Shown here: positions 21,494 through 60,631 of the stretch, piece by piece
How the letters are laid out: each line of letters opens with the position of its first letter
How positions within the stretch are numbered: position 1 is the stretch's first letter
IMG/VR virus record: IMGVR_UViG_3300004461_001625
Location: 1 to 61,990 of that record
DNA from: a virus
Lineage: Duplodnaviria; Caudoviricetes
Direction: 5' to 3' (one strand)
Length of the DNA: 61,990 nt
Made by a program: the position numbers and the translations under genes
The notes under the pieces: model-generated
What the model saw: the letters and a program-made list of their open reading frames with translations, nothing else
Told to the model about the DNA's origin: nothing
The model's database searches: none

Positions 21494-21497
21494 TATC

Positions 21498-22562: not shown

Positions 22563-22570
22563 AATTGTTA

Positions 22571-23239: not shown

Positions 23240-23265
23240 TATAATTTATTAAAAGGTTATAAATA

Positions 23266-23294
23266 ACAAAAGAGCTAAAGTAGCCCTTTTTTGT
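23266..23294 (-). terminator. hairpin, possible terminator, downstream of the Cys-rich micro-ORF
   Basis: AAAAGGGCTA-CTT-TAGCTCTTTT-GT on the minus strand. Confidence 0.5.
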
Positions 23295-23318
23295 TATATA
23301 CATTATTTTAGAGTTTGT

Positions 23319-40789: not shown

Positions 40790-41914
40790 TTAAAATAGGC
40801 TTGTAGTGTAAATCAAATTTCTATTAAATGCTTTAAATCCCATTGCAGTTACTACTCGATTAATAGGATCTAGTATTGTTTTTTCAAATTGTCTATCATG
40901 ATCCATTTCTGGTGCAAATTCATAAGGATATTCACCAGGTGCAAATGCAAACACATCACATGCTTTATCTTTAGAGAAATACATTTTACATTTTTCACCA
41001 TTGCCTAGCGGCTGATACTTACCTTTAGATGTAGAATTATTTAATAAATAATTATGGTAACCTGCAGATCTTACTCCAATGGGACACCTTGATGCAAATT
41101 CAAAAGCTTCATAATCATTTGTAATGTATTTTTGATAATTATTTACTTTTCTAGAAAAACAAATTTGATCTACATTTGCCAATTTAAATTGTCTTTTTAT
41201 ATCTTTAAGTAATGCGGCAAATGCTTTCATATCTAACTTATCAACAGAGAATATGTATGTTAATAAATCTTTTAGTTTTTCTCTAGCAAATATTGGAGTA
41301 GACGATTGAATAATTTCAAAACCTTTTGAACTAATTTTAGACAAATCTTCATAATGAATATCTGGATCTTTCCATACAATATTTTGCATGTACTTTTTCT
41401 TAGCTAACCATATTGCATTTTTGGCAATGCTTTCTAATTCAAAAGATAAAAAGTTTTCTGCATTATTATCATCAGCATATTTTTGAAGAATTTTTTCTAA
41501 ATAACCATTTACTCTAACCTTATATAATTTTAAAATAAATTCCTTTTCATCACCTTTCCAACCTTCTGATTTTTCTATTACTTCATCAAACTTTACATAT
41601 ACTGAATCTGTATCAATATAAATACCTACAGGATTTTCTATTCTTCCAGTTACTGTTATTCCCATTTCTTTATGAGCAGCAATGTCTTTATGCCAATATT
41701 TACTAAAGTACATGTTAAGTAATTCTTCAGTATATAAAATTGCATCTTTACCTTGTAATGTTATAGTCTCTGCTATATCAACATTAAAGAAATAAAAGTA
41801 AGGATTACCAAATGCACCATAAATAGAGTTAAGCATTAACTTAACTGCTTGCTCATAATTATAAAACTTACTTGCTTCTTTATTGATTTGCTGTAATTCT
41901 GTAAGCTCTGTCAT
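40790..41914 (-). CDS. family B DNA polymerase, C-terminal subunit (gp43B-like)
   Basis: Motif B KLMLNSIYG, motif C YIDTDS, KKKY, KGFE; no exonuclease domain or motif A. Confidence 0.92.
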   Translation of the reverse strand: MTELTELQQINKEASKFYNYEQAVKLMLNSIYGAFGNPYFYFFNVDIAETITLQGKDAILYTEELLNMYFSKYWHKDIAAHKEMGITVTGRIENPVGIYIDTDSVYVKFDEVIEKSEGWKGDEKEFILKLYKVRVNGYLEKILQKYADDNNAENFLSFELESIAKNAIWLAKKKYMQNIVWKDPDIHYEDLSKISSKGFEIIQSSTPIFAREKLKDLLTYIFSVDKLDMKAFAALLKDIKRQFKLANVDQICFSRKVNNYQKYITNDYEAFEFASRCPIGVRSAGYHNYLLNNSTSKGKYQPLGNGEKCKMYFSKDKACDVFAFAPGEYPYEFAPEMDHDRQFEKTILDPINRVVTAMGFKAFNRNLIYTTSLF

Positions 41915-42254: not shown

Positions 42255-43004
42255 TTAATCCTCGTCAGTAATCGCCACAGCGACAGTTAAGTGAGTGTTG
42301 GTATCTAAAGATCTAAATACAACTTTATTATTACAAACTACCACTTTATAGTTTTCTTTATCTAAAAGGTTAATATATTTTTTGTAAATTACAACCTTTT
42401 GTCCTACTGCATTTTCACCTTCATATGAATGAGCTAAAGTAGCATCATAAGAAAGACCTTGTACTGCAATACCTTTATCAGTTACTGCTAATGTAAATGT
42501 ATCTTCTTCTCTTTCTAAATTAAATAAAGATTTCATTTTATCCACATGAGTTGTTAAAAGATCAAACTGAAATATATTACCGTCAGTTCCAAATGCACGA
42601 TCAGTTTCTTCTTTACTCATTTCCATAAATGATAATGATGGATCAGCACATGCTAAATTAATTTGAAGATCAGCATTCTCTAAAGTAAAATCACTTGCCA
42701 TTAATTCTCCATCAATTTCTGAGTACTTAATTTTACCTTGTACATCTCCATTAAAATGAGATAGTGCATCGATTACTTTGGTACCATTATAAAAACTAAC
42801 CTTTACTGGATTAGTAATGTCAGTGTCAAAGATATCAGATGTTGGTGTTGATACTAATTTCACTGCATCCCTTTCTGGGAAGTATACAGATGAAACGGTT
42901 CCTTCCTTTCCAATTTTCATAAAAATGAATTTATCAATTGGTAAAAGTTTTTTGACGAATGTACTTAATTCGTAACCGTCAATTTTTTTAATAGTTGCTT
43001 CCAT
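42255..43004 (-). CDS. probable sliding clamp (T4 gp45/PCNA-like)
   Basis: 249-aa acidic protein, LACADPS linker, INLLDKENYKVVV..VVF C-terminus; a clamp loader is encoded in the window. Confidence 0.6.
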   Translation of the reverse strand: MEATIKKIDGYELSTFVKKLLPIDKFIFMKIGKEGTVSSVYFPERDAVKLVSTPTSDIFDTDITNPVKVSFYNGTKVIDALSHFNGDVQGKIKYSEIDGELMASDFTLENADLQINLACADPSLSFMEMSKEETDRAFGTDGNIFQFDLLTTHVDKMKSLFNLEREEDTFTLAVTDKGIAVQGLSYDATLAHSYEGENAVGQKVVIYKKYINLLDKENYKVVVCNNKVVFRSLDTNTHLTVAVAITDED

Positions 43005-43051
43005 TGAATTTATTATTTGTTTATTGTTATATGCATTAATTTAATTTAGTT

Positions 43052-44320
43052 TTAAAAAGTACTCTTAACTTTATACTTCTTTTTAGGTACTGCGCCCAGT
43101 TCTTCTGTTACTAGGATTTTTTGGTTTGTATTATCCTGTTTCATAAAAGTAAAGTTTGTCATTTTAGATTTACCTTCACAGAACTTTTTAACTTCAACTG
43201 CCATATCCATAGCCGTTGTTGCAGGTACATTTTGAGCAATATGATTAACTTGCCTAGCATCCTTAATACCAAAGTCTAAAGGTAATCCCATTAAGTGTAA
43301 CATTTCTCTAATGTTTAAATATCGGTTTTCCGTTGGGTGTACACCATTAAACATATTTCTACCGATAAGAGCTGAGAAACTTTCATTAAAGAAGTGAGGT
43401 GATGCATCCCAATAACCTAAACCTTGGCTTGTTTTATATTTCTGATGCTCTAACATATCACCAAATGATTTTGTGGATTTTTTATTAGAGAACCCTTGTT
43501 TATGATAATTTTTATCTAACCATTGAATACATTCATCAAGTAATTCATTCTTTTCTAAATACTGAGCAATTGTACCTTTACCAAACTTCTTAGCAAAATC
43601 AGCATGATTCAATTCTTCTTTTTCTAATACGAATTCATAAGGTTTATAATGATCCGTTACCTTTCCGGCTACCATAAACATATCTTGTAATGTTGCATCT
43701 TCTGGTATTTCTTTAAGATAATCTATAAGATGTTTCTTTTCTCTGAATTTCCATTCCAATAAAGGTACAGTTGGTGTATTCCAAAAGAAATAGAATGTTC
43801 GTATTCTTCTTTGTGGAATTCCATGTAATTCAGTATTTGTTTTAATTAAAGAAAAGCTATATCCATATTTTTCACCGATGGCCTTTAGCCTATTAACAAC
43901 ACCTTCACCCATTTTGGTAAATAATCCTGGCGCGTTTTCACCCCATAAGACTTTAGGTTTAACATTCTCCAAAACATACTCCGATGAATTATACATCCAT
44001 TGATTTTGAACCGCATCAGATCCTCTAGATGAGGCGCTACCGCTAGCAGAATTTAACTGTGACAATCCTGCACAAGGGCAAACTGAATTTACAAAATCAA
44101 CTTTTTCAAATGTTTGATTAGGAATATCTAATTCTTCATGATCTAGCCTATACATCGGTACTTCTGGCCAATAATCTTCAATATGACTTTCATTTGCAGC
44201 AAATGCTTCATAGCTTAAATGAAATGCTGGTAAATTACCTGTTGCTTTATTACAACCTATTGCACTACCACCAATCAGTGGAATTATAGTACCCCATTTT
44301 AATTCTTTTTCTTTTTTCAT
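43052..44320 (-). CDS. C5 cytosine DNA methyltransferase-like protein with atypical SAM-binding motifs
   Basis: Motif IV PCAGLS, VI ENAPGL, VIII PQRRIRTF, IX RYLNIREMLHLMGLP; motif I reads IPLIGG and motif X reads AQNVP. Confidence 0.8.
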   Translation of the reverse strand: MKKEKELKWGTIIPLIGGSAIGCNKATGNLPAFHLSYEAFAANESHIEDYWPEVPMYRLDHEELDIPNQTFEKVDFVNSVCPCAGLSQLNSASGSASSRGSDAVQNQWMYNSSEYVLENVKPKVLWGENAPGLFTKMGEGVVNRLKAIGEKYGYSFSLIKTNTELHGIPQRRIRTFYFFWNTPTVPLLEWKFREKKHLIDYLKEIPEDATLQDMFMVAGKVTDHYKPYEFVLEKEELNHADFAKKFGKGTIAQYLEKNELLDECIQWLDKNYHKQGFSNKKSTKSFGDMLEHQKYKTSQGLGYWDASPHFFNESFSALIGRNMFNGVHPTENRYLNIREMLHLMGLPLDFGIKDARQVNHIAQNVPATTAMDMAVEVKKFCEGKSKMTNFTFMKQDNTNQKILVTEELGAVPKKKYKVKSTF

Positions 44321-45336
44321 ATTTTAACTTTTTCAATTTCTAAATCTTCCATGAATGTAAAAGGATCAATATTACCTTCTTCTATTTCATTTTCCAAATA
44401 TACAATAGTTTCTTTGATTGTATCAGTTATATCTTTTTTAGGTTCCCATCCCATTGATTTTGCTTTAGAAATATCTCCATAAGAATTTAATGCTTCTCCT
44501 GCAATTGCATCATAATGATCAAAATCAACATTAACATCCATAATGTCTGCTATCATATTTTTAAGATCCATTAGGTTAGTCATTTTACCAGTTCCTAGAT
44601 TAAATGTTTGATTTGCAGTATCTTCATTTTCCATACAAAGAATATGGAATGCATTAACATCAGATACATCTATATAATCTCTTGCCTTCATATAATCACC
44701 AAACACAATAGGATTACGGCCACCTTTGATTCTTAGAATAAATCCAGCAAAAACTGGTGGGATTGTTCTTTCGTAATCTTGTAGTGGTCCTGCTACATTA
44801 AAATATCTAAGTGCAGTATAATTCAATCCTTTAGTTCTACAATAAGATTCTGCTAATAGGGCAAGACATGCTTTTGTTGTAGAATAAATTGTAGTAGGAT
44901 CTGATTGAGTTTCATTAAATCCTGCTTTAGGCATTTCGCAATTTTCATATACTGCTGAAGTTTCACTAAAGATAATTCTTTTAACATCTGCCTTAAGACA
45001 GCCATTCATTACATTAATACTTCCTAAGATATTATTATCTACTGCTTCATATACATCTTCATGACAATCATAAATTGAAACTAAACCTGCAAAGTGATAA
45101 ACATAATCTGGTGCAAATTTTTCAATAATTGTTTCTACAAATTGATTTCTAATATCAACTCTATGAAAGTTTTCTATTTGATCATGAACTTTAGGAATAT
45201 AAGTTCCATGTTCCATATTATCAATAACTGCAATACATTCAGGATTATGTCCTCTATTTAATAAATCATTGATAAAATTTGTACCAACGAACCCAGCACC
45301 ACCGGTGACTAGGATTTTAGTTTCAGAATTATACAT
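44317..45336 (-). CDS. NAD-dependent NDP-sugar epimerase/dehydratase
   Basis: TGGAGFVG, YSTTK (YxxxK), LRYFNVAGP, RDYIDVSD, FNLGTG. Confidence 0.9.
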   Translation of the reverse strand: MYNSETKILVTGGAGFVGTNFINDLLNRGHNPECIAVIDNMEHGTYIPKVHDQIENFHRVDIRNQFVETIIEKFAPDYVYHFAGLVSIYDCHEDVYEAVDNNILGSINVMNGCLKADVKRIIFSETSAVYENCEMPKAGFNETQSDPTTIYSTTKACLALLAESYCRTKGLNYTALRYFNVAGPLQDYERTIPPVFAGFILRIKGGRNPIVFGDYMKARDYIDVSDVNAFHILCMENEDTANQTFNLGTGKMTNLMDLKNMIADIMDVNVDFDHYDAIAGEALNSYGDISKAKSMGWEPKKDITDTIKETIVYLENEIEEGNIDPFTFMEDLEIEKVKI

Positions 45337-45340
45337 ATAT

Positions 45341-46585
45341 TTAGTTTGTTATTTTGTTATAAGCTTCCCATATTTTATTATCTACGTGTTCTCCAGTATA
45401 ATAAGAATCTTTTAAATACTTTTCTTGGAGATTATAAAAGAGTTTTTTATAATGCTCTGGGTTTGCATTTAAAAAATCTACTTTCTTTTTTAAATCTTCT
45501 GGAGATTTACATCTAATGAAATGACCGTCAGGGAAGACATTAAATTCAGTATCGTAAGATGGATGTAAGAATGGTATAATACCATAGTGTAGCATTTCAG
45601 CATACTTAGAGGTTACCATTCCTTCTTTAATAGGTACACAGAAAGTATACTTAGTAGAAAGTAATTCATCTGTCATTGATTCAATTCTTTTTTCTCCTTT
45701 AAACCAATTTGGATATTTTTCTTTTAATTCATCATCCCACTTACCATAAATATCTGTCTTTATATCATTCTCTACAATATAATCTTTAACTGGATCCCAT
45801 CGGTCCATTCCTCCCGTACCTTTTCCTTGATTTTGTAACATCATAAATGAATTTGTCTTTTTCATTTCAAACAATTCATCAGTGTTATACCTAGTCTTAT
45901 CTAAAAGAAAGACAGTTTCAATACCTGAATATTCATAAGTAGAAGTAATTGTTTTAACATCTCTTAGTGGTGGTTGATAAAAATACTGCTCTTCTTTTGT
46001 AAAATTATTTTGAGCTAAGTAATATGTAGGTCTATTATTAATACCCCAATCTTTACAGGCTAATACATATCGATTATCTACAAGTAAACCAACAATTGGT
46101 ACTTTCTTTTCCAATTCATTCATTGCTTGAATTATTGGTGCTGCATAATATTTAAAAAAGTCTAATGATTTAACTTGACCATTCCCATCCTTCTTATTAA
46201 TATAATTAGGAATATTAACTGTACTTGATGGTCCAGTGTAAAAGAAAATAAAATCTAAATCTAATTCTTTTATAAATTTTACAGTTTCATCAGCAGATTT
46301 TCTATTCTCCATTTTAGAATGAAATTCATGAATGTTTGATTCTGCCGCTGACTCTGCTTTAACAGGATCTCCAAATAATGATTGAACTGCCGGCTTTTCT
46401 TTTGCTCTAACTCTGCCTAAATCATTAGGGCTTAATAACCAATATTCAATATTAGGATTTCTTTTTGCTATTGCATTTATTAATTGCTTAGGTTCACAAT
46501 CTCCACCGATTGCGCCCCAACTGTTTTCATTAAACTTAATCGCTTTACCAAGTTTAAAGAAACCTACTTTTTTAACATTTTCCAT
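45341..46585 (-). CDS. GT-B glycosyltransferase resembling T4 DNA beta-glucosyltransferase
   Basis: C-terminal R..TDIYGKW..FKG..VTSKYAEML..FLHPSYDT parallels T4 BGT as recalled (R..IEFFG..FTG..ITLRVWETM..IDEEFDT); similarity judged by eye. Confidence 0.6.
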   Translation of the reverse strand: MENVKKVGFFKLGKAIKFNENSWGAIGGDCEPKQLINAIAKRNPNIEYWLLSPNDLGRVRAKEKPAVQSLFGDPVKAESAAESNIHEFHSKMENRKSADETVKFIKELDLDFIFFYTGPSSTVNIPNYINKKDGNGQVKSLDFFKYYAAPIIQAMNELEKKVPIVGLLVDNRYVLACKDWGINNRPTYYLAQNNFTKEEQYFYQPPLRDVKTITSTYEYSGIETVFLLDKTRYNTDELFEMKKTNSFMMLQNQGKGTGGMDRWDPVKDYIVENDIKTDIYGKWDDELKEKYPNWFKGEKRIESMTDELLSTKYTFCVPIKEGMVTSKYAEMLHYGIIPFLHPSYDTEFNVFPDGHFIRCKSPEDLKKKVDFLNANPEHYKKLFYNLQEKYLKDSYYTGEHVDNKIWEAYNKITN

Positions 46586-47290
46586 TTAACACGTTTTAAT
46601 TAAATCTTCTATTACTTCTTTATCATTTTCATACGTTAGATCATACCAACATATATTTAATTCCTCAAACTTTAAATTATCCATTGAATTAATAAGATGG
46701 GTAATTTCATATTCATTTCTATTTGACATTTTAATACTATCAAGATTATCAAATGCTTCTTTTGAAAATATCATATAACCACAGAAATATCTTCCTGAAA
46801 CAATTCCATGTGGTTTTTCTATAACAACATTTTCTAATATGGAAGCTAATTGTAAATTCCTAGCTCTTGTATCATAATCTTTGTAAGTAACTACTGTACT
46901 GTTTGGATCATGATATTCTAATCCTATATTTCCTTGATAATAATTATCTCCAAATAAACACAAGAAGCCTTCATTAAATTTACCAGCCCAAACCTTTATT
47001 GCTGCACCTGGACCATATTCATCATCCTTTTGAAATTCATAAAATATGTTAATGTCTTTTTTATACTTATTAAGTTTTTCTATAATAGGATGAGAAAGTT
47101 TTATACTATCTTTAAAAAAGAAATCGGCTTTACTAATTGTTACATAACAATCTTCTATTCCATTCTCAATACAAAATTCAATACAATATTCAACTGTTGA
47201 TTTGCCTAAGATAGGATCAACTAATTTATTTTTGCCATATCTTGTAGAACGGCCTGCTGCTAATATAATTGCTTTACTTACTCTTTTCAT
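46586..47290 (-). CDS. sugar-1-phosphate nucleotidyltransferase
   Basis: AIILAAGRSTRYG..K, LFGDN, IEKP, SNRNEYEIT, WYDL (RmlA-like). Confidence 0.88.
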   Translation of the reverse strand: MKRVSKAIILAAGRSTRYGKNKLVDPILGKSTVEYCIEFCIENGIEDCYVTISKADFFFKDSIKLSHPIIEKLNKYKKDINIFYEFQKDDEYGPGAAIKVWAGKFNEGFLCLFGDNYYQGNIGLEYHDPNSTVVTYKDYDTRARNLQLASILENVVIEKPHGIVSGRYFCGYMIFSKEAFDNLDSIKMSNRNEYEITHLINSMDNLKFEELNICWYDLTYENDKEVIEDLIKTC

Positions 47291-48033
47291 TTAGTATACT
47301 TTATTTCTAATTCATCAAATAATTCATGTCCTTTTTTAAGGAAAGATCCTGCTAATTCATACCTTTCATTTAATTCAAAGAAAGGTACTGCTCCTAATAA
47401 ATGAACAGCTAAAAAGAACTTAAGTTGATATTCATCACACCATTCATACATTATCTTTTCAGCTTCTTTACAGAACTTACTGTATTTTTTATTTGGATTA
47501 TTGTATATATGGGACTCATATTCCATGACAAATGATTGCATCAGTTTTCCATAATCATAATAGTCCTGTTCTTCGGTACCTCTTGGGTCTATAAAAAGAA
47601 AATCTTTATCATGTAAAATGTTACTTACGGTTAAATCTCCATGTACAAAACCCCAACAAGATACTGCATCAAATTTACCTTCATAAGTATAACCTGTTCT
47701 TAATTGAAGTTTATTAAAATAATCTTGAGTCTTTACATCAGATCCTATATTATCAAACTTGCCTATAATTGAAATAAGATTTTCTAATTGATTTAATGAG
47801 TTAGTAATAGGTTGAGTTAAAATTTTATCATACCAAGTTGAAAACCTTTTCATTTCATAACTTGTTTCTGATAGAGGCTTAACATTAATAAAATTAGGAT
47901 GATCACAGCACATAAGAAATTCCATTTGCTGTTTGAATTTTTCTGGATAATGCCCAGCCTCTTTAATTACTTTGTTACCTTGGAGAAATACTTTATCTCC
48001 ACTATTCCCTACTAAAATTTTACTATTATGCAT
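47287..48033 (-). CDS. APH/choline-kinase-fold phosphotransferase (putative sugar kinase)
   Basis: GNSG, HGDLTVSNIL, FIDPRG, YDYGKL. Confidence 0.8.
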   Translation of the reverse strand: MHNSKILVGNSGDKVFLQGNKVIKEAGHYPEKFKQQMEFLMCCDHPNFINVKPLSETSYEMKRFSTWYDKILTQPITNSLNQLENLISIIGKFDNIGSDVKTQDYFNKLQLRTGYTYEGKFDAVSCWGFVHGDLTVSNILHDKDFLFIDPRGTEEQDYYDYGKLMQSFVMEYESHIYNNPNKKYSKFCKEAEKIMYEWCDEYQLKFFLAVHLLGAVPFFELNERYELAGSFLKKGHELFDELEIKYTK

Positions 48034-48563
48034 TTTATTCCTAGTTTACGTGCAAAGGTTGAATCTACGTCAGAATCACCAACCATTAAAAAGTCTTCTT
48101 TGTTATATTGTGGAAATTTTTCTATTATTAGATTTCCCATATCTATAGACGGTTTTTTATTTGATACATCTTCTCTTGTATATATGTAATCAAATAACTT
48201 AGGATCTATTTGATGATAACTCATGATTCTATCTACATTTTCTCTAGAAGAATTAGATGCTATAACTAAATTTTTAAATACTTTACTCTTACACATATAT
48301 AAAAGTAATTCATTTACTTTAGTTTTATGTAAGTTTTTTGAAAATATTTCCTTTTTATATTTTTGTGCTAACTTAGATTCTTTATTAGTTAATTGATATT
48401 TTTCTAATAAAACATCCATACCATAATTAATATCTGCCATGATAGCGGATAACGGTATTTCTATGTTTAAGACCTTTTCTAATGCCTTTCTCCAGGAATC
48501 AGCATGAATCTCAATAGTTTTAACTAGTGTATCATCAAAATCTAACATTAAACATTTTTCCAT
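48012..48563 (-). CDS. HAD-superfamily phosphatase/phosphomutase
   Basis: DFDDTL, IASNS, KKP, MVGDSDVD. Confidence 0.88.
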   Translation of the reverse strand: MEKCLMLDFDDTLVKTIEIHADSWRKALEKVLNIEIPLSAIMADINYGMDVLLEKYQLTNKESKLAQKYKKEIFSKNLHKTKVNELLLYMCKSKVFKNLVIASNSSRENVDRIMSYHQIDPKLFDYIYTREDVSNKKPSIDMGNLIIEKFPQYNKEDFLMVGDSDVDSTFARKLGIKCIIVKF

Positions 48564-48581
48564 ATAAATCCTAATTTATTA

Positions 48582-48608
48582 TTATATGGATAAAATAACA
48601 AATGTTTT
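48582..48608 (-). promoter_or_regulatory. putative replication-class promoter heading the HAD-to-methyltransferase operon
   Basis: AAAAC-N16-ATATAA. Confidence 0.6.
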
Positions 48609-48685: not shown

Positions 48686-48862
48686 TTAAAGACTGTTCTT
48701 AGTATCTTGTACGTGTATTCTTACTTCTTGTGCTAGATTTTTAATATCTTGCATTGTTTTACGAATTCTAACAGCAGCAGCTTTATTTCCTTTTACATAA
48801 AACTTATCTACATCTTCATTACACGCTTCGATTAACGCTTTAATTTCTTCAAATTTTTCCAT
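48686..48862 (-). CDS. Hc1-family histone H1-like protein (58 aa, not in the ORF track)
   Basis: MEKFEEIKALIEACNEDVDKFYVKGNKAAAVRIRKTMQDIKNLAQEVRIHVQDTKNSL contains the KGNKAA..R.R signature; has its own late-class motif (48898..48906) and terminator. Confidence 0.85.
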   Translation of the reverse strand: MEKFEEIKALIEACNEDVDKFYVKGNKAAAVRIRKTMQDIKNLAQEVRIHVQDTKNSL

Positions 48863-48910: not shown

Positions 48911-49819
48911 CTAGAACTTACCTTCACGGTTTCTGTAAAAACTTGTTACTTTAGGAATGTACATATAATTTTTTCCTTTGTCCTTGACGTTCATCATGAC
49001 TCTTTTAAACATGTCCCAATCAGCAGGTAATATACCACCTGAATTAGATGGTGCACCCTTTAGCTTAGGAGCAGTGTTTTTCTGTTGATCTGGATTTCTA
49101 TATCTTAATTTACCTATTATGCTAGGTCTCCAAGACACAGCAGAATGCGAAGTATCATTTGCTCCGTATCCTTTATTATTTAAATCCATATCATATTCTT
49201 TTTGCGGTTGCATAAATACTTTCTTTGCAGTATTATGAGCAGTTACTTTCTTTTTACTTCTAGTAAACACAAAACCTAAATCAGGAAATTGTGAGTACGC
49301 TTTAGCAATAGTCTCTAAGTGATTAGGAGCCCATTTATCATCATGATCTAATCGTATGATATAATCACAACCGTCTTTGTCTGCCATATTTAAGGAATCA
49401 TTTAATGCACCACAGCCTGCAGTAAATCTAATTTGTTTAGTTGTCCACTTTTTATTATTTCTTTCACCTGGTGTTGATCTATTCTTATATTGAATTTGAT
49501 CAGCAGGTATAATATCTTCTATTACTTTTTTAATTTCATTCTCATCACCTTCATATTTATCAGCAGTCAAATAAATTTTCCAGTTTTTATATTTTTGATT
49601 CTTAATAGAATTTAAAGCATCTGCTAAAACGCCAGGAGTTGTCATATGCTTTGCCCTCTGTTTGTTTGCAGCACCAGCATTCATATCATGAGTAGCCATC
49701 ACTATTCCAAACTTAATATCATTATCTATTTTTGATCCAAGATTTTTTTCTAAAAGAATTTGAAAATTTTCTTGGCCTATATAAGACTCTAATAAGTTAT
49801 ATTCTTCAAAAGTTATCAT
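48911..49819 (-). CDS. GT2-family glycosyltransferase
   Basis: IVMATH, SIKNQKYKNW, ALNDSL, RLDHDDKW, ADWDMF. Confidence 0.82.
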   Translation of the reverse strand: MITFEEYNLLESYIGQENFQILLEKNLGSKIDNDIKFGIVMATHDMNAGAANKQRAKHMTTPGVLADALNSIKNQKYKNWKIYLTADKYEGDENEIKKVIEDIIPADQIQYKNRSTPGERNNKKWTTKQIRFTAGCGALNDSLNMADKDGCDYIIRLDHDDKWAPNHLETIAKAYSQFPDLGFVFTRSKKKVTAHNTAKKVFMQPQKEYDMDLNNKGYGANDTSHSAVSWRPSIIGKLRYRNPDQQKNTAPKLKGAPSNSGGILPADWDMFKRVMMNVKDKGKNYMYIPKVTSFYRNREGKF

Positions 49820-50931
49820 TTATTAAAAAATGTTTTTATAGACTTTATAATTCTTTTCATATCTTTGTTTGTAAGATCTGAACCTGAAGGTAAACAAATA
49901 CCTTGTAAGAATAATAAAGAACTGTTTCCATTTATATATTTTTTATATCCTTGCATAACTGGTTGTTCATGCATTGGTTTCCAAATTCTTCTTGCTTCTA
50001 TATTATCATTAGCTAAATGGTCAATTAAATCTTCTGGTTTATCTTCACCTTTCATAAGAGCACAGCTTAACCACATATTAGATCTATCAGTTTCTCTCTC
50101 TTCTTGAAAAGAATAAAATAAATTACCTACTTCTTTTCTATAAATTTGATTAATTTCTCTTGTTCTTTTTATTCTATCTTCTATAGACTCCATTTGGCCT
50201 ACACCAATTGCAGCAAGAACATTACTCATTCTATAATTATAACCTATTTCAGTATGATGATAAAATGGTTTTTTATCTTTAGCTTGCGTAGATAAAAATC
50301 TCATATAATCTGCAAGTTTATCATCATTGGTTACAATAACCCCACCACCTGAGGTAGATAATAACTTATTTCCATTAAAAGAATAAACACCAATAGGACC
50401 AAAGGTTCCTGTGTGCTTATTATTAAAAGTAGATCCCAAACTTTCAGCGGCATCTTCAATAATAGGTATGTCATATTCATCTGATAATTTTTTAATTGCA
50501 TCCATATTACATGGTACTCCAAAAATATGGACGGGTATAATAGCTTTTGGTTTTTTACCTAAAGCTGTTGAATTAAGAATTGCTTTTTCTAATAGTATAG
50601 GATCCATATTCCATGTACCTTCTTCTGAATCAATAAAAATAGGTTCAGCACCACAGTAAATTATAGGATTAACGGTTGCTACGAAAGTTAATGAAGAACA
50701 TAAAACATAATCACCTTCTTCAACCCTTAATGCTCTTAATGCTAAATGAATACCTGCAGTTGCTGAAGTAACAGCTACTGCGTATTTAGAATTAGTATAT
50801 TCTTTAACAGTATCTTCAAACATATTAAGATGTGGCCCAATTGGAGCTATCCAATTATCTTTAAACACATCATTAATATATTCTAACTCTTTGCCTGACA
50901 TATGAGGCGGTGAAAGATAAATTTTTTTCAT
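49816..50931 (-). CDS. pglE: DegT/DnrJ/EryC1/StrS sugar aminotransferase (PglE-like)
   Basis: IYLSPPHM, IEDAAESLG, SFNGNKLLSTSGGG, GYNYRMSN, CLPSG. Confidence 0.88.
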   Translation of the reverse strand: MKKIYLSPPHMSGKELEYINDVFKDNWIAPIGPHLNMFEDTVKEYTNSKYAVAVTSATAGIHLALRALRVEEGDYVLCSSLTFVATVNPIIYCGAEPIFIDSEEGTWNMDPILLEKAILNSTALGKKPKAIIPVHIFGVPCNMDAIKKLSDEYDIPIIEDAAESLGSTFNNKHTGTFGPIGVYSFNGNKLLSTSGGGVIVTNDDKLADYMRFLSTQAKDKKPFYHHTEIGYNYRMSNVLAAIGVGQMESIEDRIKRTREINQIYRKEVGNLFYSFQEERETDRSNMWLSCALMKGEDKPEDLIDHLANDNIEARRIWKPMHEQPVMQGYKKYINGNSSLLFLQGICLPSGSDLTNKDMKRIIKSIKTFFNK

Positions 50932-51509
50932 AATTTTATTTTAACAGGATTTCCATAAGCAGTAATTCCATCAGGTAAATTTTTTGTAACAACTGAGCCT
51001 GCACCAATCATACAATTTTTACCAATTTTAATATAAGGTAATATCACAGCACCTGCTCCAATAAATGTACCTTCTCCAATTTCTACACCACCACACAATG
51101 TTGCATTAGGTCCTATAAAACTAAAGTCTCCTAATATACAATCATGATCTATTGATGCCGCCGTATTTATTATACAATGCTTTCCTATTTTAGTACCAAC
51201 TTGTATTGTAGAATTATGCAATATCTGAGAACCCTTCCCAGGATTAATATTTCTATCCAAAACAGCCGAGTCATGAATTACTGTAATATAACAATCATTT
51301 CCTAATAATTCTGCTATTCTTTTTCTTGAACTATTATTACCAATAGCAATTAACCAATCACCTTCTATATTATTATTATAAGGATCAAAATCCCCAACTT
51401 CTTTTTCATAACTTTCATCATCCCAAAATTTTATTTGTTTAGGGTGTGTATTATACAAAACAGAACTTATTACTTTTGCATGCCCGCCTTTTCCGTAAAT
51501 ATTAATCAT
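50928..51509 (-). CDS. pglD: sugar N-acetyltransferase (PglD/NeuD-like)
   Basis: YGKGGHAKV, IAIGNN..R, IDHDC, hexapeptide repeats. Confidence 0.88.
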   Translation of the reverse strand: MINIYGKGGHAKVISSVLYNTHPKQIKFWDDESYEKEVGDFDPYNNNIEGDWLIAIGNNSSRKRIAELLGNDCYITVIHDSAVLDRNINPGKGSQILHNSTIQVGTKIGKHCIINTAASIDHDCILGDFSFIGPNATLCGGVEIGEGTFIGAGAVILPYIKIGKNCMIGAGSVVTKNLPDGITAYGNPVKIKL

Positions 51510-53379
51510 TTATTTTTGCAAATTTTTCTATTTCTTCTTCAGATAATTCTAACCTATCCCAACCACCAGAAGGTAAAAATGTTTTAACATATTTTCTTCT
51601 TTCTTTTTCTAATTCATTATGATCATTAAAAAATTCATTAATGCAATAATATTTTTTAATATTCTCATTTAATATTATAGAAAAATTTGTCACAGAACTT
51701 ATTCTTCCTATAAAAATAGGAAATTTAGATAGCATATGTACATCTCTAAAAAGCTCATATGCATTATCTTTCTTTTCCCAGTTAAGTATTTGTTGAGTAA
51801 CTTGAGAATCTGTTTGGTCGGTTAGGTCTACTCTTTCTATATTAAAATAATAAATAGGTGGAAGATCGGAAAACGTTTTTAAATACTCAATGCTCTTTAC
51901 TGCATCACTTGCTATAAAAATCTTATTAATATTAGGATTTTCTTTTATAACCTTACGAATTAAAATAAGGTAATCACTTAACTCTGCCTTACCCCACTCT
52001 GTATGTAAATTCATATCAGTAGTTCTTAGATGAACTCCTAATGTATTAGAATCTAACTTCCACTTTTTATAATAATTATTTACATCATTTATTAATGAAG
52101 GTTTCCATTTACATAATGTATTGACGACCTTTCTCATAATAGGCAAAAGATCCTTATCCCTTTTATTAGTAATAAGATTAGTACAAGGTATTATATAATT
52201 ATCATTACATAGATTAGGGCGATAAAGATTTAATACTTTATTATTTTCGTTTGGAGATTGATCAAAAACAAAATCAAACCAATTAGGAACTCTTCGTAGT
52301 CCTTTATTGTCTTTAAGCCAATGGCTTTTAATATGCTCACCTAATTTTATATAAATTGATGGTGCTTCTTCTATTGTTTTTAGCAACTTAGGATTATGTA
52401 CAAGAGATTTAACCATTACTTCTAATTGAGAAAGTGTCCCACCGCCGTCTAAATTAAAATCAATAGTTAAATTATCCGAAGATTCACTTTTTAAAAGATC
52501 AGATAAACCTGACCTCCAAATAATATCGCCAAAACTTAAGTGTTTAAAACATTCTTTAAAATTATGCTTAATTTCTTTTTCTTTTGAATTGTAAAATTCA
52601 GAAGTTAATTTATTGCTAGTTAAGATATCATATAATTCTTCAGCTGTATTAAAAAATATCATACCATCTGTATTAAACCCTTCCCATTGCTTAGTATCTT
52701 TATGGCCCCATATTATAGGAATAGTACCAGTTAACATACAATCTAAATGTTTCTCTGTTAAAAAATAAGGAAATTCGTTTTCTACAACTATTTCATATCT
52801 ATAATCCTTTAATACATCAATCTTTTTTACAGGATTATTCCAATCAACAGTCTTAGGTATTTTATTTTTTATATAGTCCCTTGCAGTATGTCTTAATATA
52901 TGCCCTTGCAGCCCAAGGTTTTTATTAGACCATATAGCCGTGACATTTTTACTTTTATTATAAATTTTTCTTTCATTAGAATCAATAAAAGTTCTGGAAC
53001 CAGCTATATAATACTTATACTTTTCCGGATATTTACCTGTGCCTTTCCATGCAGGGTAATGAACAAATATTAAATCAAATAAATGTTCATTCTCTAAAAT
53101 CCAAGAATGTAAAGCTCTATTAAAACTCATAGGTTCCATTTGAACCATAACTTTATATTTTTGATTTGAATTTTTAACTATAGTTTCTAAATTATCTAGT
53201 GAACCGTCATAATCTACAAAAATAGCAACATCTGTAGGATCATTAGTCCATTCTATATACTGACTAGGTGTAGAAGGTAAATGCCCAGCCCTCTCCTCAT
53301 TTCCAAAGTTCCATTTATCCCAATATAAATTAATTTTTCTTTTTTTATTCATTGCCTTCTCTTTTAAATTCAGGAACAA
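51502..53379 (-). CDS. two-domain glycosyltransferase: GT10-like N-half plus GT23/NodZ-like C-half
   Basis: YRYEIVVEN..FLTEK..C..GTIPIIWG (GT10); GGGTLS, LGVHLRTTD, IFIASD, DVHMLSK..IGRISSV (GT23). Confidence 0.75.
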   Translation of the reverse strand: MFLNLKEKAMNKKRKINLYWDKWNFGNEERAGHLPSTPSQYIEWTNDPTDVAIFVDYDGSLDNLETIVKNSNQKYKVMVQMEPMSFNRALHSWILENEHLFDLIFVHYPAWKGTGKYPEKYKYYIAGSRTFIDSNERKIYNKSKNVTAIWSNKNLGLQGHILRHTARDYIKNKIPKTVDWNNPVKKIDVLKDYRYEIVVENEFPYFLTEKHLDCMLTGTIPIIWGHKDTKQWEGFNTDGMIFFNTAEELYDILTSNKLTSEFYNSKEKEIKHNFKECFKHLSFGDIIWRSGLSDLLKSESSDNLTIDFNLDGGGTLSQLEVMVKSLVHNPKLLKTIEEAPSIYIKLGEHIKSHWLKDNKGLRRVPNWFDFVFDQSPNENNKVLNLYRPNLCNDNYIIPCTNLITNKRDKDLLPIMRKVVNTLCKWKPSLINDVNNYYKKWKLDSNTLGVHLRTTDMNLHTEWGKAELSDYLILIRKVIKENPNINKIFIASDAVKSIEYLKTFSDLPPIYYFNIERVDLTDQTDSQVTQQILNWEKKDNAYELFRDVHMLSKFPIFIGRISSVTNFSIILNENIKKYYCINEFFNDHNELEKERRKYVKTFLPSGGWDRLELSEEEIEKFAKIND

Positions 53380-54406
53380 TACTTTTCATTAATAGAAGTA
53401 TTTTGTAAAAATCATTTGATCTAATTTTAGATAACTTTTCTATTTTAGGAATAAGTGTTTTAAAGTCATAATCTATATGATTAAGTTTCATTATATTATT
53501 ATCTTCGGTAGTTACCATATTTTCGCCATCACATAATAGTTCTTCATATAGCTTTTCACCGGGCCTTAATCCTATGTATTCTATCTTAGCTTTACTTTTA
53601 AAATGTTTAATAAGATTTTTTGCTAAATCATTTATACTTACAGGTTCTCCCATATCAAATAAAAATACTTCTCCACCTTTACCTAATACACTCCCCTGTA
53701 AAACCAATTGGCATGCCTCAGGTATAGTCATAAAGTATCTTATAACTTCTTTATGGGTAACACTTACAGGACCACCGCTTTTAATTTGTTTTAAAAATGT
53801 TGGAATTACTGAGCCTTCAGATCCTAATACATTACCAAATCTTGTTACTATAAAATTAGTGGCTGACTTAGTTTCTAAAAACTGAGTATATAATTCTGCT
53901 ATTCTTTTCGTAGCACCCATTATGTTTGTAGGATTAACTGCTTTATCTGTTGATACCATAACAAATTTATCAACCTCATTCATAAAAGAAATATCAGCAA
54001 CATTCTTTGTTCCTAGAACATTTGTTTTAATTGCTTCAATTGGATTAGCCTCCATCATAGGAACATGTTTATAAGCAGCTGCATGAAATACTACGTTAGG
54101 TTTAAAGCTTTCAAAAACTTCTTCTAATCTATACTTATCTCTTACATCACCTATTACATATTTTATATGAGATTTTGGATTTGACCTACTAATCTCTTGT
54201 TCCAAATGAAACATAGATGCTTCAGCATTATCAAAAACAGTTACTGATGAGGCATTAAAATTAACAAGTTGTCTTACTATTTCACTACCTATTGAACCTG
54301 CACCACCGGTTACAAGTATTCTTTTACCTTTAATAAAATCTTTTATTAACTTAAGATCAGTTACTATAGGCTTGCGATTAAGCAGCTTAGAATAGTTTAA
54401 TTTCAT
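53345..54406 (-). CDS. pglF: UDP-GlcNAc 4,6-dehydratase (PglF/CapD catalytic domain)
   Basis: TGGAGSIGSE, HAAAYKHVP, STDKAVNPTNIMGATK, RFGNVLGS.GSV, GLRPGEKLYEEL. Confidence 0.9.
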   Translation of the reverse strand: MKLNYSKLLNRKPIVTDLKLIKDFIKGKRILVTGGAGSIGSEIVRQLVNFNASSVTVFDNAEASMFHLEQEISRSNPKSHIKYVIGDVRDKYRLEEVFESFKPNVVFHAAAYKHVPMMEANPIEAIKTNVLGTKNVADISFMNEVDKFVMVSTDKAVNPTNIMGATKRIAELYTQFLETKSATNFIVTRFGNVLGSEGSVIPTFLKQIKSGGPVSVTHKEVIRYFMTIPEACQLVLQGSVLGKGGEVFLFDMGEPVSINDLAKNLIKHFKSKAKIEYIGLRPGEKLYEELLCDGENMVTTEDNNIMKLNHIDYDFKTLIPKIEKLSKIRSNDFYKILLLMKSIVPEFKREGNE

Positions 54407-55149
54407 ATATTATTTATTTGAGACACTAACCAATCCAATTCTACTTGACTAGCAGAATCAGAAATAGCATTCTCAGGATCAGGGTGTGTTTCAATAAATA
54501 CGCCATCATATTCAAAAATCTTTGCTGCTTGAGCATATTGTTTAGCTAATTTACGACTACCTCCAGTTATACCTTCTCCAGCCATTTGGGTTGAATGAGT
54601 ACAATCTAAAATAACTTTGTCTGCAAATTCTTTCATTACATCTACACCTCTAAAATCTACAATTAATCTATCATAACCAAAATTAGATCCTCTTTCAGTT
54701 ACCCACACTTCACAATTAGGATCAACTTCCTTTATCTTTGCAACTGCATGTTTCATTGATTCAGCAGATAGCCATTGACCTTTTTTAATATTAATTATAT
54801 TAAAGTTTTTTGCACATGCAATTAAAAGATCTGTTTGTCTGCATAAGAATGCTGGTATTTGAATAACATCAACAACTTCAGACAGTGGTAATGCTTGGTT
54901 AGGATTATGAATATCAGTTACAATTTTAATGTTAGGATAATGGTGTTTGACTGTTCTCATAATTTCCATCCCTTCATCTAAACCTGGACCTCTATCTGAA
55001 TGTATTGAAGTTCTATTAGCTTTATCAAAAGAACCTTTGAGATACCATTCCTTGGTTCCCATGTAGCCATCTAAAGTTTTTGCTACTTCTAAAAAGTTGT
55101 CCTCGTTTTCAATACTGCAAGGACCAAGTATATATGTATAGTTTTTCAT
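54403..55149 (-). CDS. kdsA: Kdo-8-phosphate synthase
   Basis: GPCSIE, KGSFDKANRTS, QIPAFLCRQTDL, NIKKGQ, ERG..FGY, DCTHS, ETHPDP. Confidence 0.93.
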   Translation of the reverse strand: MKNYTYILGPCSIENEDNFLEVAKTLDGYMGTKEWYLKGSFDKANRTSIHSDRGPGLDEGMEIMRTVKHHYPNIKIVTDIHNPNQALPLSEVVDVIQIPAFLCRQTDLLIACAKNFNIINIKKGQWLSAESMKHAVAKIKEVDPNCEVWVTERGSNFGYDRLIVDFRGVDVMKEFADKVILDCTHSTQMAGEGITGGSRKLAKQYAQAAKIFEYDGVFIETHPDPENAISDSASQVELDWLVSQINNI

Positions 55150-58651: not shown

Positions 58652-60067
58652 TTAATCATTGTCTTGTTTTTTTAACTCTTGTTCCAAATCATATGCTTTT
58701 TGTTGAAGTCTAAATGATTCTTTCTTATAAGTCTTTCTTTGATCATACAACCTACTTAATACGTCTTTAAGTATTGATCTCTCTGTACTATATACCGCAC
58801 CTGTAACTGAAACAATCCTATCATCACCTACTTCCTTATCTCTAATTTCTGGTTTTACTTTTCTAATAAAACTTTCTGGAGATACATTTAATTGTCTCAT
58901 AATAGAAGGATATAGTGAAGCAAAATCAAACGCAGCTACAGCATTATGCATTCCTGTTTTAGGTTCTTTTACAAAGGCTCCTTCAAATTGTTGTCTTTTA
59001 GTTGGAGGTGCTTTAGGATCTTTTGCCATTACTAAATCTCTGGTTAAAAATTCTCTGGCTAATAATGCTTCAGTAATTGCTACAGGTGATGCTGCTTTAA
59101 ATATACTAATCTGAGTCATATGAGCAATAGTTAAAGCAATTTCCATTGTTTTAATTTTTTCATGAATTAAATAAACTAATGCAGTATCAACAGCATTATA
59201 AAAAATGTATTTAGGATAATCCTTTTCATACATATCCTGTATTGTTCCGTCATATTTAATTTTACGAATACCTACAACAGCTTCACCTACTGTATCTAAT
59301 TTAAAATCTTCTTTAATATCAACAGTCCTATCCCATTTTGCATAAATATCTAAATAATCCATTACGCCTACATGGCATGGAAATTCATGTTTACCAAACG
59401 TTCTACCTATAGGAGAAGCTATAGAAGGATCAATTCCTAATTTCTTACAACGATTTACAATATACTGCCAGTCAAATTGAACATAATTCCAACCTGTCAT
59501 CATAGAAAACTTTTTAACAAAAGAATCCATAAAAGTATAAAGCATATCATACTCATTTTTAAAACATTTAAAGATAAATGAAAATTCTTCGCCTATACTT
59601 TTAAAGTGTTCATCTATTTGTTTTTGAATTTTAGATTGTGTTTGTCTATCTAAATCTTTTGTAGCTAAAACTATACATTGCTTTTCTGGAGTAACAATAC
59701 AAATTGCAGTTACTGGATTAGGTGCCTTGCTTGGTTCTGGAAATGAATCAGTTACCTCTACTTCAATATCTACAAAAAAAGTTTTTGGAAAATGATAACC
59801 GAATATGAGCTCTCTATCAGAAAAAGATAGCTGATCCATATATTCAATAATTCTATACTTATTTAAATATCTTGATCTTGCTTTCTTTACAGAACGACCA
59901 TCCCAGTTTTTAATTTTCTTATCTGCTTTAGGATCGCCGCCTTCACAAACCTCCCAGTTAAACATATCCTCTGGTTGAAGATCATAAGTTTTAAATCTAG
60001 TTTTTCCGTCAAGATTAAAATAAGAAACCCATAATTGGCGATCTTCTTGAGTTATATCTAATAGCAT
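58652..60067 (-). CDS. family B DNA polymerase, N-terminal subunit (gp43A-like: exonuclease plus motif A)
   Basis: ExoI DIEV, ExoII GWNYVQFD, ExoIII YNAVD, FEGAFV.EP, motif A FDFASLYPSIM..NVSPE; ends in the first fingers helix. Confidence 0.92.
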   Translation of the reverse strand: MLLDITQEDRQLWVSYFNLDGKTRFKTYDLQPEDMFNWEVCEGGDPKADKKIKNWDGRSVKKARSRYLNKYRIIEYMDQLSFSDRELIFGYHFPKTFFVDIEVEVTDSFPEPSKAPNPVTAICIVTPEKQCIVLATKDLDRQTQSKIQKQIDEHFKSIGEEFSFIFKCFKNEYDMLYTFMDSFVKKFSMMTGWNYVQFDWQYIVNRCKKLGIDPSIASPIGRTFGKHEFPCHVGVMDYLDIYAKWDRTVDIKEDFKLDTVGEAVVGIRKIKYDGTIQDMYEKDYPKYIFYNAVDTALVYLIHEKIKTMEIALTIAHMTQISIFKAASPVAITEALLAREFLTRDLVMAKDPKAPPTKRQQFEGAFVKEPKTGMHNAVAAFDFASLYPSIMRQLNVSPESFIRKVKPEIRDKEVGDDRIVSVTGAVYSTERSILKDVLSRLYDQRKTYKKESFRLQQKAYDLEQELKKQDND

Positions 60068-60090: not shown

Positions 60091-60585
60091 TTAATAATTG
60101 TTTTCTTGCCTGTTCCAATTCTCTTCATTCTTAGAAAGATAATAATTATAGAACTCTTTTGGAGAAACGCCGATAGCTAAACCTGCATTAAATACAAAAT
60201 GCATTACATCAATCCATTCCATTTTTAATTCCTTTAAATCACCTGGTGTTAAATCAGATAATTTTTGTTTTCTGATTTCAGGATTTTTAGATTTCCAAGG
60301 TTTCCATGCAGCATTACCAACACCGTCTTCGATTCCTCCAACCGCATCTACCATTTCATGTAGCTCATCAATGATTGCATGATTAGTAACCATTAAAAAA
60401 TCTATAACATCACCTATAGTGAACTCTGAGAAAGGTTTTCTACCTTGCTTTTCAAAATACATATTTTGAGTTTTAGCTTGTAGAGAATAAAGTTCTTCTA
60501 ATGAATTAACTTTAACATCATATTCTTTCTCTTTCCAATAATCTCTAACATCGAGATCCTTACATTTATTATCAGTGTTTGCCAT
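60091..60585 (-). CDS. all-alpha dimeric dUTPase/dCTPase (T4 gp56/MazG-like)
   Basis: DELHEM, WKPWK, MEWIDVMHF, YLSKNEEN..RQ..Y. Confidence 0.85.
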   Translation of the reverse strand: MANTDNKCKDLDVRDYWKEKEYDVKVNSLEELYSLQAKTQNMYFEKQGRKPFSEFTIGDVIDFLMVTNHAIIDELHEMVDAVGGIEDGVGNAAWKPWKSKNPEIRKQKLSDLTPGDLKELKMEWIDVMHFVFNAGLAIGVSPKEFYNYYLSKNEENWNRQENNY

Positions 60586-60603: not shown

Positions 60604-60631
60604 TTATATAGCTAAAATGTAAGTTTGTTTT
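60604..60631 (-). promoter_or_regulatory. putative replication-class promoter for dUTPase and the polymerase N-subunit
   Basis: AAAAC-N17-ATATAA. Confidence 0.6.

Follow-up and report, generated by a model that had tools for sequence, protein, structure and literature searches.

The 61,990-base virus record IMGVR_UViG_3300004461_001625 (the whole of it is called the window below) contains six minus-strand open reading frames (ORFs) at 48563..43052 which raise the question of what sugar chemistry a phage carries out beside its replication genes, and on which acceptor. In gene order they encode a HAD-superfamily phosphatase (48012..48563, 183 aa), an APH/choline-kinase-like small-molecule kinase (47287..48033, 248 aa), a sugar-1-phosphate nucleotidyltransferase (NT; 46586..47290, 234 aa), a GT-B glycosyltransferase (GT; 45341..46585, 414 aa), an epimerase-like enzyme of the extended short-chain dehydrogenase/reductase (SDR) type acting on nucleoside diphosphate (NDP) sugars (44317..45336, 339 aa), and a protein of the C5-cytosine-methyltransferase family (MT; 43052..44320, 422 aa). 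The reading put forward here is that 5-hydroxymethylcytosine (5hmC) would be made before replication and then be glycosylated on the DNA with an NDP-sugar produced by the phage, the six genes supplying the sugar side of a cytosine hypermodification like that of T4. On comparative evidence we hold this to be probable, with appreciable room left for other explanations.

The glycosyltransferase and its probable acceptor base

In a Pfam scan at E<=0.01 the GT matches PF13524 alone (1.1e-3), and its family comprises 386 representatives at E<=1e-3. An AlphaFold2 (AF2) model built from an alignment of 108 family members has a pLDDT of 94.1. When this model was compared with the PDB using Foldseek, ranks 1-6 were all T4 beta-glucosyltransferase (BGT; CAZy family GT63), with E from 3e-10 to 5e-8, and behind it in the ranking came BshA, WaaG, OGT and T4 alpha-glucosyltransferase (AGT). 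VIA-align over 48,161 chains also put T4 BGT at rank 1 (Z 21.9, rmsd 3.8, 312 residues), T4 AGT at rank 4 (Z 18.3), and the GT of phage HY126 at rank 21 (Z 15.4). A profile of the GT family (A1) matched T4 BGT in hhalign with 93.4% probability (E 2.6e-7) over the C-terminal domain, and the identity in the structural alignment is ~12%. The resemblance to T4 BGT that had been claimed in the initial annotation holds up, as BGT is the top solved fold by two methods and profile homology is detected. A fold search of the GT against T4 BGT versus the GT-B enzymes of lipopolysaccharide and exopolysaccharide synthesis had been suggested there as a check; BGT came first, with other GT-B folds (BshA, WlaC, PimA, and WaaG) close behind. 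The modelled fold and the gene neighbourhood lead us to propose the GT as a candidate 5hmC DNA glycosyltransferase. When the sequences of the MT, the GT, and the kinase were searched one by one against the PDB, no usable match came out.

The initial annotation saw neither a dCMP hydroxymethylase nor a TET/JBP dioxygenase in the window, and indeed PF00303 (thymidylate synthase, TS) and PF12851 (Tet_JBP) are both without a match across it. It also left the source of the acceptor hydroxyl unexplained, and here a likely source can now be named from four near relatives. In all four that were searched (G001-G004, with GTs 78-98% identical to that of the window) PF00303 is represented by a divergent gene coding for 294-302 residues, and two of the four additionally have a canonical ThyA. 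G001 runs collinear with the window in the opposite orientation, G001 43557 corresponding to position 1 of the window, and its divergent TS gene is found at ~49.2-50.0 kb, ~5.6 kb past the left end of the window and after guanylate-kinase-like and thymidylate-kinase-like genes. The distance between TS and GT in the lineage of the window is ~49 kb.

The divergent TS proteins of G001-G004 all (4/4) display the signature of T4 gp42, RS-N-D...D, with D169 kept and N177 changed to D, while N stands last in the canonical ThyA copies. When aligned with T4 gp42, RB69 gp48, and canonical ThyA, the G001 protein is seen to keep the catalytic Cys. At position 169 of the alignment RB69 gp48, a 5-hydroxycytosine synthase, has Asn where the relatives have Asp, and a published rule, Asp169 versus Asn, separates synthases of 5-hydroxymethyl-dCMP from those of 5-hydroxy-dCMP (Lee et al. 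NAR 2026, PMC13326640). The best characterised match of the G001 protein is T4 dCMP hydroxymethylase (32% identity, E 6e-21). Since the TS of the relatives carries a gp42-type cytosine signature, 5hmC formed ahead of replication is the most probable acceptor. The search beyond the window that had been called for was run on these relatives, and it turned up the TS-like genes but no TET/JBP: PF12851 had no match in the four records, which are 30-65% complete and were searched without a positive control.

How far the association between GT and TS extends can be seen from an IMG/VR scan with a 12-sequence alignment, which gave 80 loci. After 39 on the contigs of close relatives had been set aside, the remaining 41 loci made up 19 GT clusters at 90% identity, with GTs 30-36% identical to that of the window. 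In 18 of these 19 distant clusters the GT has, <=4.6 kb away, a TS with 47-55% identity to T4 gp42; the sole cluster without a nearby TS is L102, where there is little matching flank. The gp42 signature is present in all 19 distinct TS sequences. An MT of the family found in the window occurs in 18/19 clusters (the exception is L104) and often overlaps the stop codon of the GT gene, a small HAD occurs in 17/19, and a fused NT-kinase in 16/19. An arabinose-5-phosphate (A5P) isomerase of the RB69 type was found in none of the 19. The loci most like the window are L102 and L105. The former has the order HAD_2, kinase, radical SAM, NT (51% identical to the NT of the window), GT, a 207-aa ORF, and MT (45%), while the latter has a thymidylate-kinase-like gene (Tmk), TS, kinase, PF01467 cytidylyltransferase, SDR (56%), GT, and MT.

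Cultured phages also contain such sets. In Pseudoalteromonas phage vB_Psh_XG4 the cluster consists of a gp42-like TS, a small HAD, a fused NT-kinase, the GT, a second GT, and an MT of the same family as that of the window, and Enterococcus phages 9183/Planchet have a nucleotide kinase, a TS/hydroxymethylase, a dUTPase, a HAD, an NT-like 544-aa protein, a GT, an RNase H, and a GT. The proposal that the phage makes its own NDP-sugar and has a DNA GT working on a modified cytosine thus appears well supported comparatively, by the BGT-like fold and by the gp42-like TS genes beside the GTs.

All 41 close IMG/VR relatives show the order HAD-kinase-NT-GT-epimerase-MT-clamp-PolB over whatever part of it their contigs include. 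All six genes are present in 35 of them, and the other six contigs stop at or just upstream of the GT. The synteny check that the initial annotation had asked for therefore finds a fixed gene order, while the glycan cluster upstream of the operon, with genes of the legionaminic acid (Leg), bacillosamine (Bac), and Kdo types, varies among the same 41 relatives. Single additional ORFs are seen in some loci: a 334-aa ORF without a family between MT and clamp (L019, 13542-14546), a 223-aa class-I-methyltransferase-like ORF (phrog_3603, 1e-70) between epimerase and MT (L012, 12280-12951), and a DinG-like helicase between NT and GT (L044, 8193-9914).

Proposed sugar activation, the methyltransferase and the layout of the unit

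The identities first assigned to the four sugar-activation genes are upheld, by Pfam for the HAD and the epimerase, by weaker matches for the NT, and by BLASTP and Atlas comparisons for the kinase. The HAD protein matches PF13419 (4.9e-24) and is of the HAD_2 type with a DxDxT start. It is 24% identical to gp310 of Bacillus phage G (E 7e-6), while BLASTP gave no match at E<=1 to the small HAD of the RB69 gp51 type. It is proposed that it would act on a sugar bisphosphate, stripping it of the phosphate that is not anomeric, or else serve as a phosphomutase.

The kinase has no match in Pfam or NCBIfam, and tblastn against phages gave none either. It contains an HGDxxxxN stretch, which we take to speak for an APH-like kinase. 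BLASTP finds phage G gp311 (3e-8), S-CBWM1 gp12 (2e-7), and RB69 p052 (0.025), and also the C-terminal halves of the NT-kinase fusions of XG4 (1e-3) and 9183 (2e-3). In the Atlas, the named clusters closest to it (scores of 0.97-0.98) consist to 60-81% of PF01636 APH. On these similarities it is accepted here as a putative APH-like kinase, and we propose that it is an anomeric sugar kinase.

For the NT, PF12804 gives 1.1e-6 and PF00483 2.6e-4, the latter with 21.1 bits against a cut-off of 21.2, and the NCBIfam matches (TIGR03992/rmlA_long, sugar-1-phosphate nucleotidylyltransferase) are all below cut-off. It is 38% identical to gp11 of cyanophage S-CBWM1, annotated as a glucose-1-phosphate thymidylyltransferase, and 27% identical to phage G gp309. 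The epimerase matches PF01370 (1.2e-44) and the nucleotide-sugar epimerases of phrog_540 (9.6e-61); its NCBIfam matches, GalE with 133 bits (cut-off 262) and dTDP-glucose dehydratase with 130 bits, are both below cut-off. It is 56% identical to the SDR that adjoins the GT in L105. We propose that it tailors the NDP-sugar which the phage would make. As NCBIfam matches for HAD, NT, and epimerase are sub-threshold only, they do not fix the sugar.

The MT (METHYLTRANSFERASE) belongs to a family for which 2,601 homologues were detected. Its assignment to the C5 cytosine methyltransferases agrees with a PF00145 match well above the cut-off (2.9e-19, 70.1 bits against 22), and the family profile matches chains of M.HaeIII, M.HhaI, and DNMT1. 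Conserved motifs that we take to be IV (PC), VI (ENV in the classical enzymes), VIII (QxRxR), IX, and X are present, with variants in IV and VI. Motif IV of the family reads CPCAGLS, with Ala in place of the Gln of PCQ in 107/121 aligned rows, and motif VI reads GENAP, that is ENA where classical enzymes have ENV. In 11 diverse members the Cys is kept throughout (11/11) and is followed by Ala or Ser, giving the pattern C-[AS]-[GA]-L-S. Many of the homologues P0305-P0352 are forms of 570-713 aa at ~50-57% identity; P0311 and P0352 are from eukaryote-labelled sources, and P0340 has a zf-CXXC domain.

Cyanophage S-TIM5 has this MT and a cytosine-type TS without the GT family, while Enterococcus phage 9183 has GT and TS and lacks the MT family, so the MT is a frequent and not an obligatory partner. 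A prediction of a GT-MT complex scored 0.00 with controls not run, and is evidence neither way. The most conservative guess is that the MT methylates residual cytosines that escaped replacement. A bolder suggestion is that it acts on the substituted base: the Cys would form an adduct at C6 of 5hmC or glycosyl-5hmC, the small residue in motif IV would admit the C5 substituent, and a group on the exocyclic carbon would be methylated or exchanged. Together with the GT this would amount to an undescribed cytosine hypermodification common in ocean viruses, but we regard it as doubtful, with a small though real chance of being right. A literature search found no paper on a C5-MT partner of a ThyS-type pathway, while co-occurrence of ThyS and MT may be listed in the supplementary tables and figures accompanying Lee et al. 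and Pyle et al.

The six genes were found to abut or overlap at exactly the coordinates first given for them. From HAD to MT, the first two junctions are overlaps of 22 and 4 nt, the genes of the third abut directly, those of the fourth are 4 nt apart, and the fifth is again an overlap, of 4 nt. The replication-class promoter that had been claimed ahead of the operon corresponds to an enriched promoter-like motif, AAAC-N16-ATATAA, on the minus strand at 48582..48607, directly upstream of the HAD gene; the motif is also present at replication genes. A sigma-70-like match at 48610-48581 overlaps this copy. AAAC-N16/17-ATATAA has 13 copies in the window, all on the minus (coding) strand, against 2.48 expected, and none of 100 shuffles reaches 13. 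The next copy (43027..43052, minus strand) falls where the six-gene unit ends and the clamp gene begins, and the whole-window count has zero copies inside the operon. Because copies precede the HAD gene and the gene after the MT, with none between, the six genes are regarded as one unit. Contigs at least 85% alike from four RNA-library runs (three studies) cover 28-30 of 30 bins and span the epimerase/GT, NT/kinase, and kinase/HAD junctions; such contigs cannot show transcription, and RNA libraries of this kind may contain DNA.

The genes downstream are the clamp and the polymerase C-subunit, as had been stated. The clamp (42255..43004, minus strand), which lies outside the pathway, has an AF2 pLDDT of 87.8 and a PCNA fold by Foldseek, where ranks 1-50 among the matches listed are all PCNA or PCNA complexes (E from 6e-11); the Atlas lead for the ORF is gp45-slide_C, and its profile had no usable match among PDB sequences. 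That this ORF could be a hidden TET-like oxidase is ruled out by the PCNA fold. Downstream of the clamp, ORF 40790-41914 is the C-half of PolB.

The window represents the entire IMG/VR-type virus record, for which completeness is estimated at 16%. Its GC content is ~27-37%, and 59/59 picked ORFs are on the minus strand. The T4-like core genes in it are the gp20 portal, the gp23 capsid, gp15, UvsX, the gp44 clamp loader, ribonucleotide reductase (RNR), and PolB as two genes. The closest cultured or deposited phage record is LR756500.1, from an uncultured 462-kb phage (portal identity 62%), and in a nucleotide search of the six-gene operon against cultured phages one record was found, covering 2%. 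The source is an uncultured marine jumbo phage.

Known systems and competing explanations

In the proposed pathway, the gp42-type TS homologue, placed just outside the window by comparison with the relatives, would turn dCMP into 5-hydroxymethyl-dCMP, which would then be phosphorylated and incorporated into phage DNA by the split PolB. Published analogues and the families to which the proteins are assigned suggest that the APH-like kinase would phosphorylate a sugar phosphate anomerically, the HAD phosphatase would take off the other phosphate, the NT would make the NDP-sugar, and the SDR epimerase would tailor it. The fold and neighbourhood of the BGT-like GT-B suggest that it would move the sugar onto the hydroxyl of 5hmC in DNA. 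The MT would be a conserved partner, perhaps one methylating cytosines that escaped replacement. An NTP pyrophosphohydrolase of 164 aa in the window (60091..60585, minus strand; phrog_173 5e-18, weak PF08761 0.0063), without a match among PDB sequences, is a candidate for a dCTPase that excludes dCTP. By analogy with known systems, the modification may protect the phage DNA from host nucleases.

Phage T4 shares several of these features. The TS of the relatives has the active-site signature of gp42 and that of the distant clusters is 47-55% identical to gp42, BGT (PDB 1c3j/1qkj/1j39) is the best solved match of the GT, and in both phages the genes lie among replication genes. However, T4 takes UDP-glucose from the host and is without sugar-activation genes, epimerase, and C5-MT. 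Moreover, the GT of the window shares ~12% identity with BGT and profile homology in the C-terminal domain only, and in this lineage the TS gene lies ~49 kb from it.

Metavirome gene clusters offer a second comparison. According to a preprint, C5-MT and a TET-like oxidase (5mYOX) produce 5hmC in reconstituted clusters, GT and epimerase pairs are mutually dependent, and a HAD-APH protein, a cytidylyltransferase, and a BGT-like GT-B are all required for placing one or two heptoses on 5hmC (Pyle et al., bioRxiv 10.1101/2023.12.21.572611). The same text reports that GT-B genes associate with ThyS (~28%) more often than with 5mYOX, and that clamp, polymerase, methyltransferase, epimerase, and APH genes are neighbours. 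As described there, contig 53 and the GT+epimerase subclass II share with the window a HAD, an APH-like kinase, a nucleotidyltransferase, a BGT-like GT-B, the GT-epimerase pairing, and a C5-MT. This likeness to contig 53 is one of description, and HAD and APH are fused in the published clusters while they are separate here. The published clusters form 5hmC after replication through C5-MT and 5mYOX, whereas no 5mYOX was found by PF12851 in the window and in the partial records of its four relatives, and the gp42-type TS is the likely source. Measured against the C5-MT/GT type of cluster, the window thus has an MT and a GT with epimerase together in one cluster, and no TET/JBP-like dioxygenase was found with them.

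A phage-encoded sugar supply is also described for RB69, DLP3, and HY126, where a kinase/HAD/NT route leads to UDP-arabinose, the GT-B enzymes are arabinosyltransferases, and a TS with D169N supplies 5-hydroxycytosine (Lee et al. NAR 2026, PMC13326640; Thomas et al. 2018, PMC6024577). These phages resemble the present lineage in having a TS homologue, a Tmk-like kinase, a GT-B, the phage-encoded kinase/HAD/NT route, and a SIS isomerase related to the one found in the relatives. They differ in that the TS of the relatives is without the D169N signature, in that AfhE of RB69/DLP3 is a bifunctional NT-kinase while NT and kinase are separate here, and in the HAD subtype, although the logic may be the same. 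The GT of HY126 ranks lower as a structural match to the GT of the window, and the pathway is without an epimerase or a C5-MT, the word "methyltransferase" occurring 0 times in the main text of PMC13326640. Bacillus phage G has, in gp301-gp318, an MT (gp301), an NT (gp309), a HAD (gp310), a kinase (gp311), a Tmk (gp315), and a cytosine-type TS within ~15 kb, but its two GTs are like T4 AGT and fall outside the GT family of the window, and the genes are interspersed on both strands.

The operon type had been presented as a candidate for a new one in the initial annotation. This goes too far, since equivalent gene sets are in print in Pyle et al. (contig 53) and Lee et al. NAR 2026. What is new is this gene combination, in which a probable ThyS-type source is joined by sugar-activation genes, and the C5-MT-like partner of such a route.

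Several observations weigh against glycosylation of pre-replicative 5hmC. The pathway is proposed here from genes, folds, and neighbourhoods, and the TS homologue is outside the window and deduced from relatives at 78-90% nucleotide identity. Small-molecule and glycan GT-B enzymes are close behind BGT in VIA-align (6eji Z 20.0, BshA Z 19.2), the hhalign match is confined to the C-terminal nucleotide-sugar domain, Pfam gives no BGT-family match for the GT, and the protein is acidic overall, with a pI of 6.4 against 9.05 for T4 BGT. A C5 methyltransferase is without an obvious substrate if every C is replaced. Cyanophage S-CBWM1, which has the closest NT in a cultured phage, carries the HAD-NT-kinase trio without TS, this GT family, and MT, so the trio alone is no proof of DNA modification. 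Many further glycan genes (Leg/Bac-type, KdsA, GT2, O-FucT-like) are also present in the window and its relatives, and a non-DNA acceptor is therefore conceivable.

Under such an explanation the GT would use the NDP-sugar to modify proteins of the virion or a glycan on the host surface, much as the adjacent genes of the Leg/Bac/Kdo types might do, and the MT would be an unrelated anti-restriction methylase. The further glycan genes, the acidic GT, the nearness of the BshA, WlaC, PimA, and WaaG folds to BGT in the ranking, and the trio of S-CBWM1 are all in line with it, as is the statement of Pyle et al. that ~65% of GT contigs are without a base-modification neighbour. On the other hand, the GT family is tied to replication genes and, in 18/19 clusters, to a gp42-like TS, the 41 relatives share an unchanging six-gene unit while the upstream glycan cluster is variable, the operon bears a motif common to replication genes, and BGT is the top structural match. 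We therefore regard a non-DNA acceptor as unlikely.

The sharing of one operon by MT and GT, together with the presence of the MT family in 18/19 distant GT clusters, would also agree with a post-replicative route of the Burke/Pyle type. Here the MT would make 5mC, an unrecognised oxidase would convert this to 5hmC, and the GT would glycosylate those sites only; published clusters of C5-MT and 5mYOX do include GT+epimerase pairs and the HAD-APH/cytidylyltransferase/BGT-like set, as described in the preprint. However, PF12851 is without a match in the window and in the partial records of the four relatives (30-65% complete, no positive control), the ORF adjoining the MT is a clamp and not a dioxygenase, and the gp42-like TS in 18/19 clusters already provides 5hmC. 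ThyS and 5mYOX occur together in only six contigs according to Pyle et al. The route is, in our judgement, quite improbable.

Least of all do we expect an RB69-type pathway, with 5-hydroxycytosine as the base and arabinose, derived from arabinose-5-phosphate via kinase, HAD, and NT, as the sugar: a SIS isomerase is present in G001 and G002 (with 35% identity to RB69 gp55 for that of G001), the kinase/HAD/NT logic parallels AfhE/AfhF, and the kinase matches RB69 p052 weakly (E 0.025), but the TS of 4/4 relatives and 19/19 TS sequences of distant clusters keep Asp where 5-hydroxycytosine synthases have Asn, the HAD is of another subtype than RB69 gp51, the A5P isomerase is found in 0/19 distant clusters, and the SIS isomerase more likely serves Kdo synthesis because it adjoins a KdsB-like cytidylyltransferase gene in G001 and the window has KdsA.

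Neighbouring genes and wider meaning

The sugar cluster upstream of the operon (48911-55149) encodes a GT2, a LegC-like aminotransferase (395 bits), a NeuD-family acetyltransferase, a PseB/PglF-like dehydratase, and KdsA, the last with 290 bits and above the NCBIfam cut-off, as well as a 625-aa protein with a faint FUT8-like match. It is interleaved with RNR genes, and its content varies among relatives. In G001 (L145, region 755-2759) the SIS sugar-phosphate isomerase, also found in G002 (L146), is preceded by a short DegT-like ORF and directly followed by a KdsB-like cytidylyltransferase (CTP_transf_3), and together with the KdsA of the window this looks like a phage Kdo pathway. Kdo on 5hmC has been reported by Pyle et al.

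Further glycan-related ORFs are insertions relative to the collinear G001: a weak GT2-like ORF at 16842-17768, and O-FucT-like and sulfotransferase-like ORFs by the capsid genes at 21493-23309. The N-half of PolB, with the exonuclease and the start of the polymerase domain, is found at 58652-60067 and the C-half at 40790-41914, and the ~16.7 kb in between carries both sugar clusters as well as the RNR genes. Beside the candidate dCTPase and the N-half of PolB, at 60630-61460, lies the gene for a DNA glycosylase of the Fpg/Nei family that matches a DNA-binding domain of the NEIL1 type (PF09292, 3.9e-7). Just upstream of the operon, at 48686-48862, there is a 58-aa chlamydial-type histone H1-like protein (PF07432 Hc1, 7e-23) that is kept in relatives. 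In G001 the gp42-type TS gene is directly followed by one for a 405-aa ATP-grasp protein (L053, 2365-3582; PF14398, 2.8e-7), which might be a further modification enzyme.

The lineage of the window is common in seawater metagenomes, where 20 listed runs from 12 studies contain part of the stretch, and the wider module of TS, HAD, NT-kinase, GT, and MT recurs in the 19 further IMG/VR GT clusters. Glycosylation of pre-replicative 5hmC would most likely make this a widespread ocean variant of the T4 strategy. Glycosylated cytosines protect phage DNA against restriction enzymes and some CRISPR nucleases, and they also disturb the sequencing and cloning of phage DNA. If the proposed pathway is correct, a considerable share of the jumbo and T4-like phages of the sea would bear a cytosine sugar drawn from their own NDP-sugar supply. 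The GT, the kinase, and the NT would be candidate tools for 5hmC labelling, and with a conserved C5-MT-like partner in a pre-replicative pathway the enzymology could be new.

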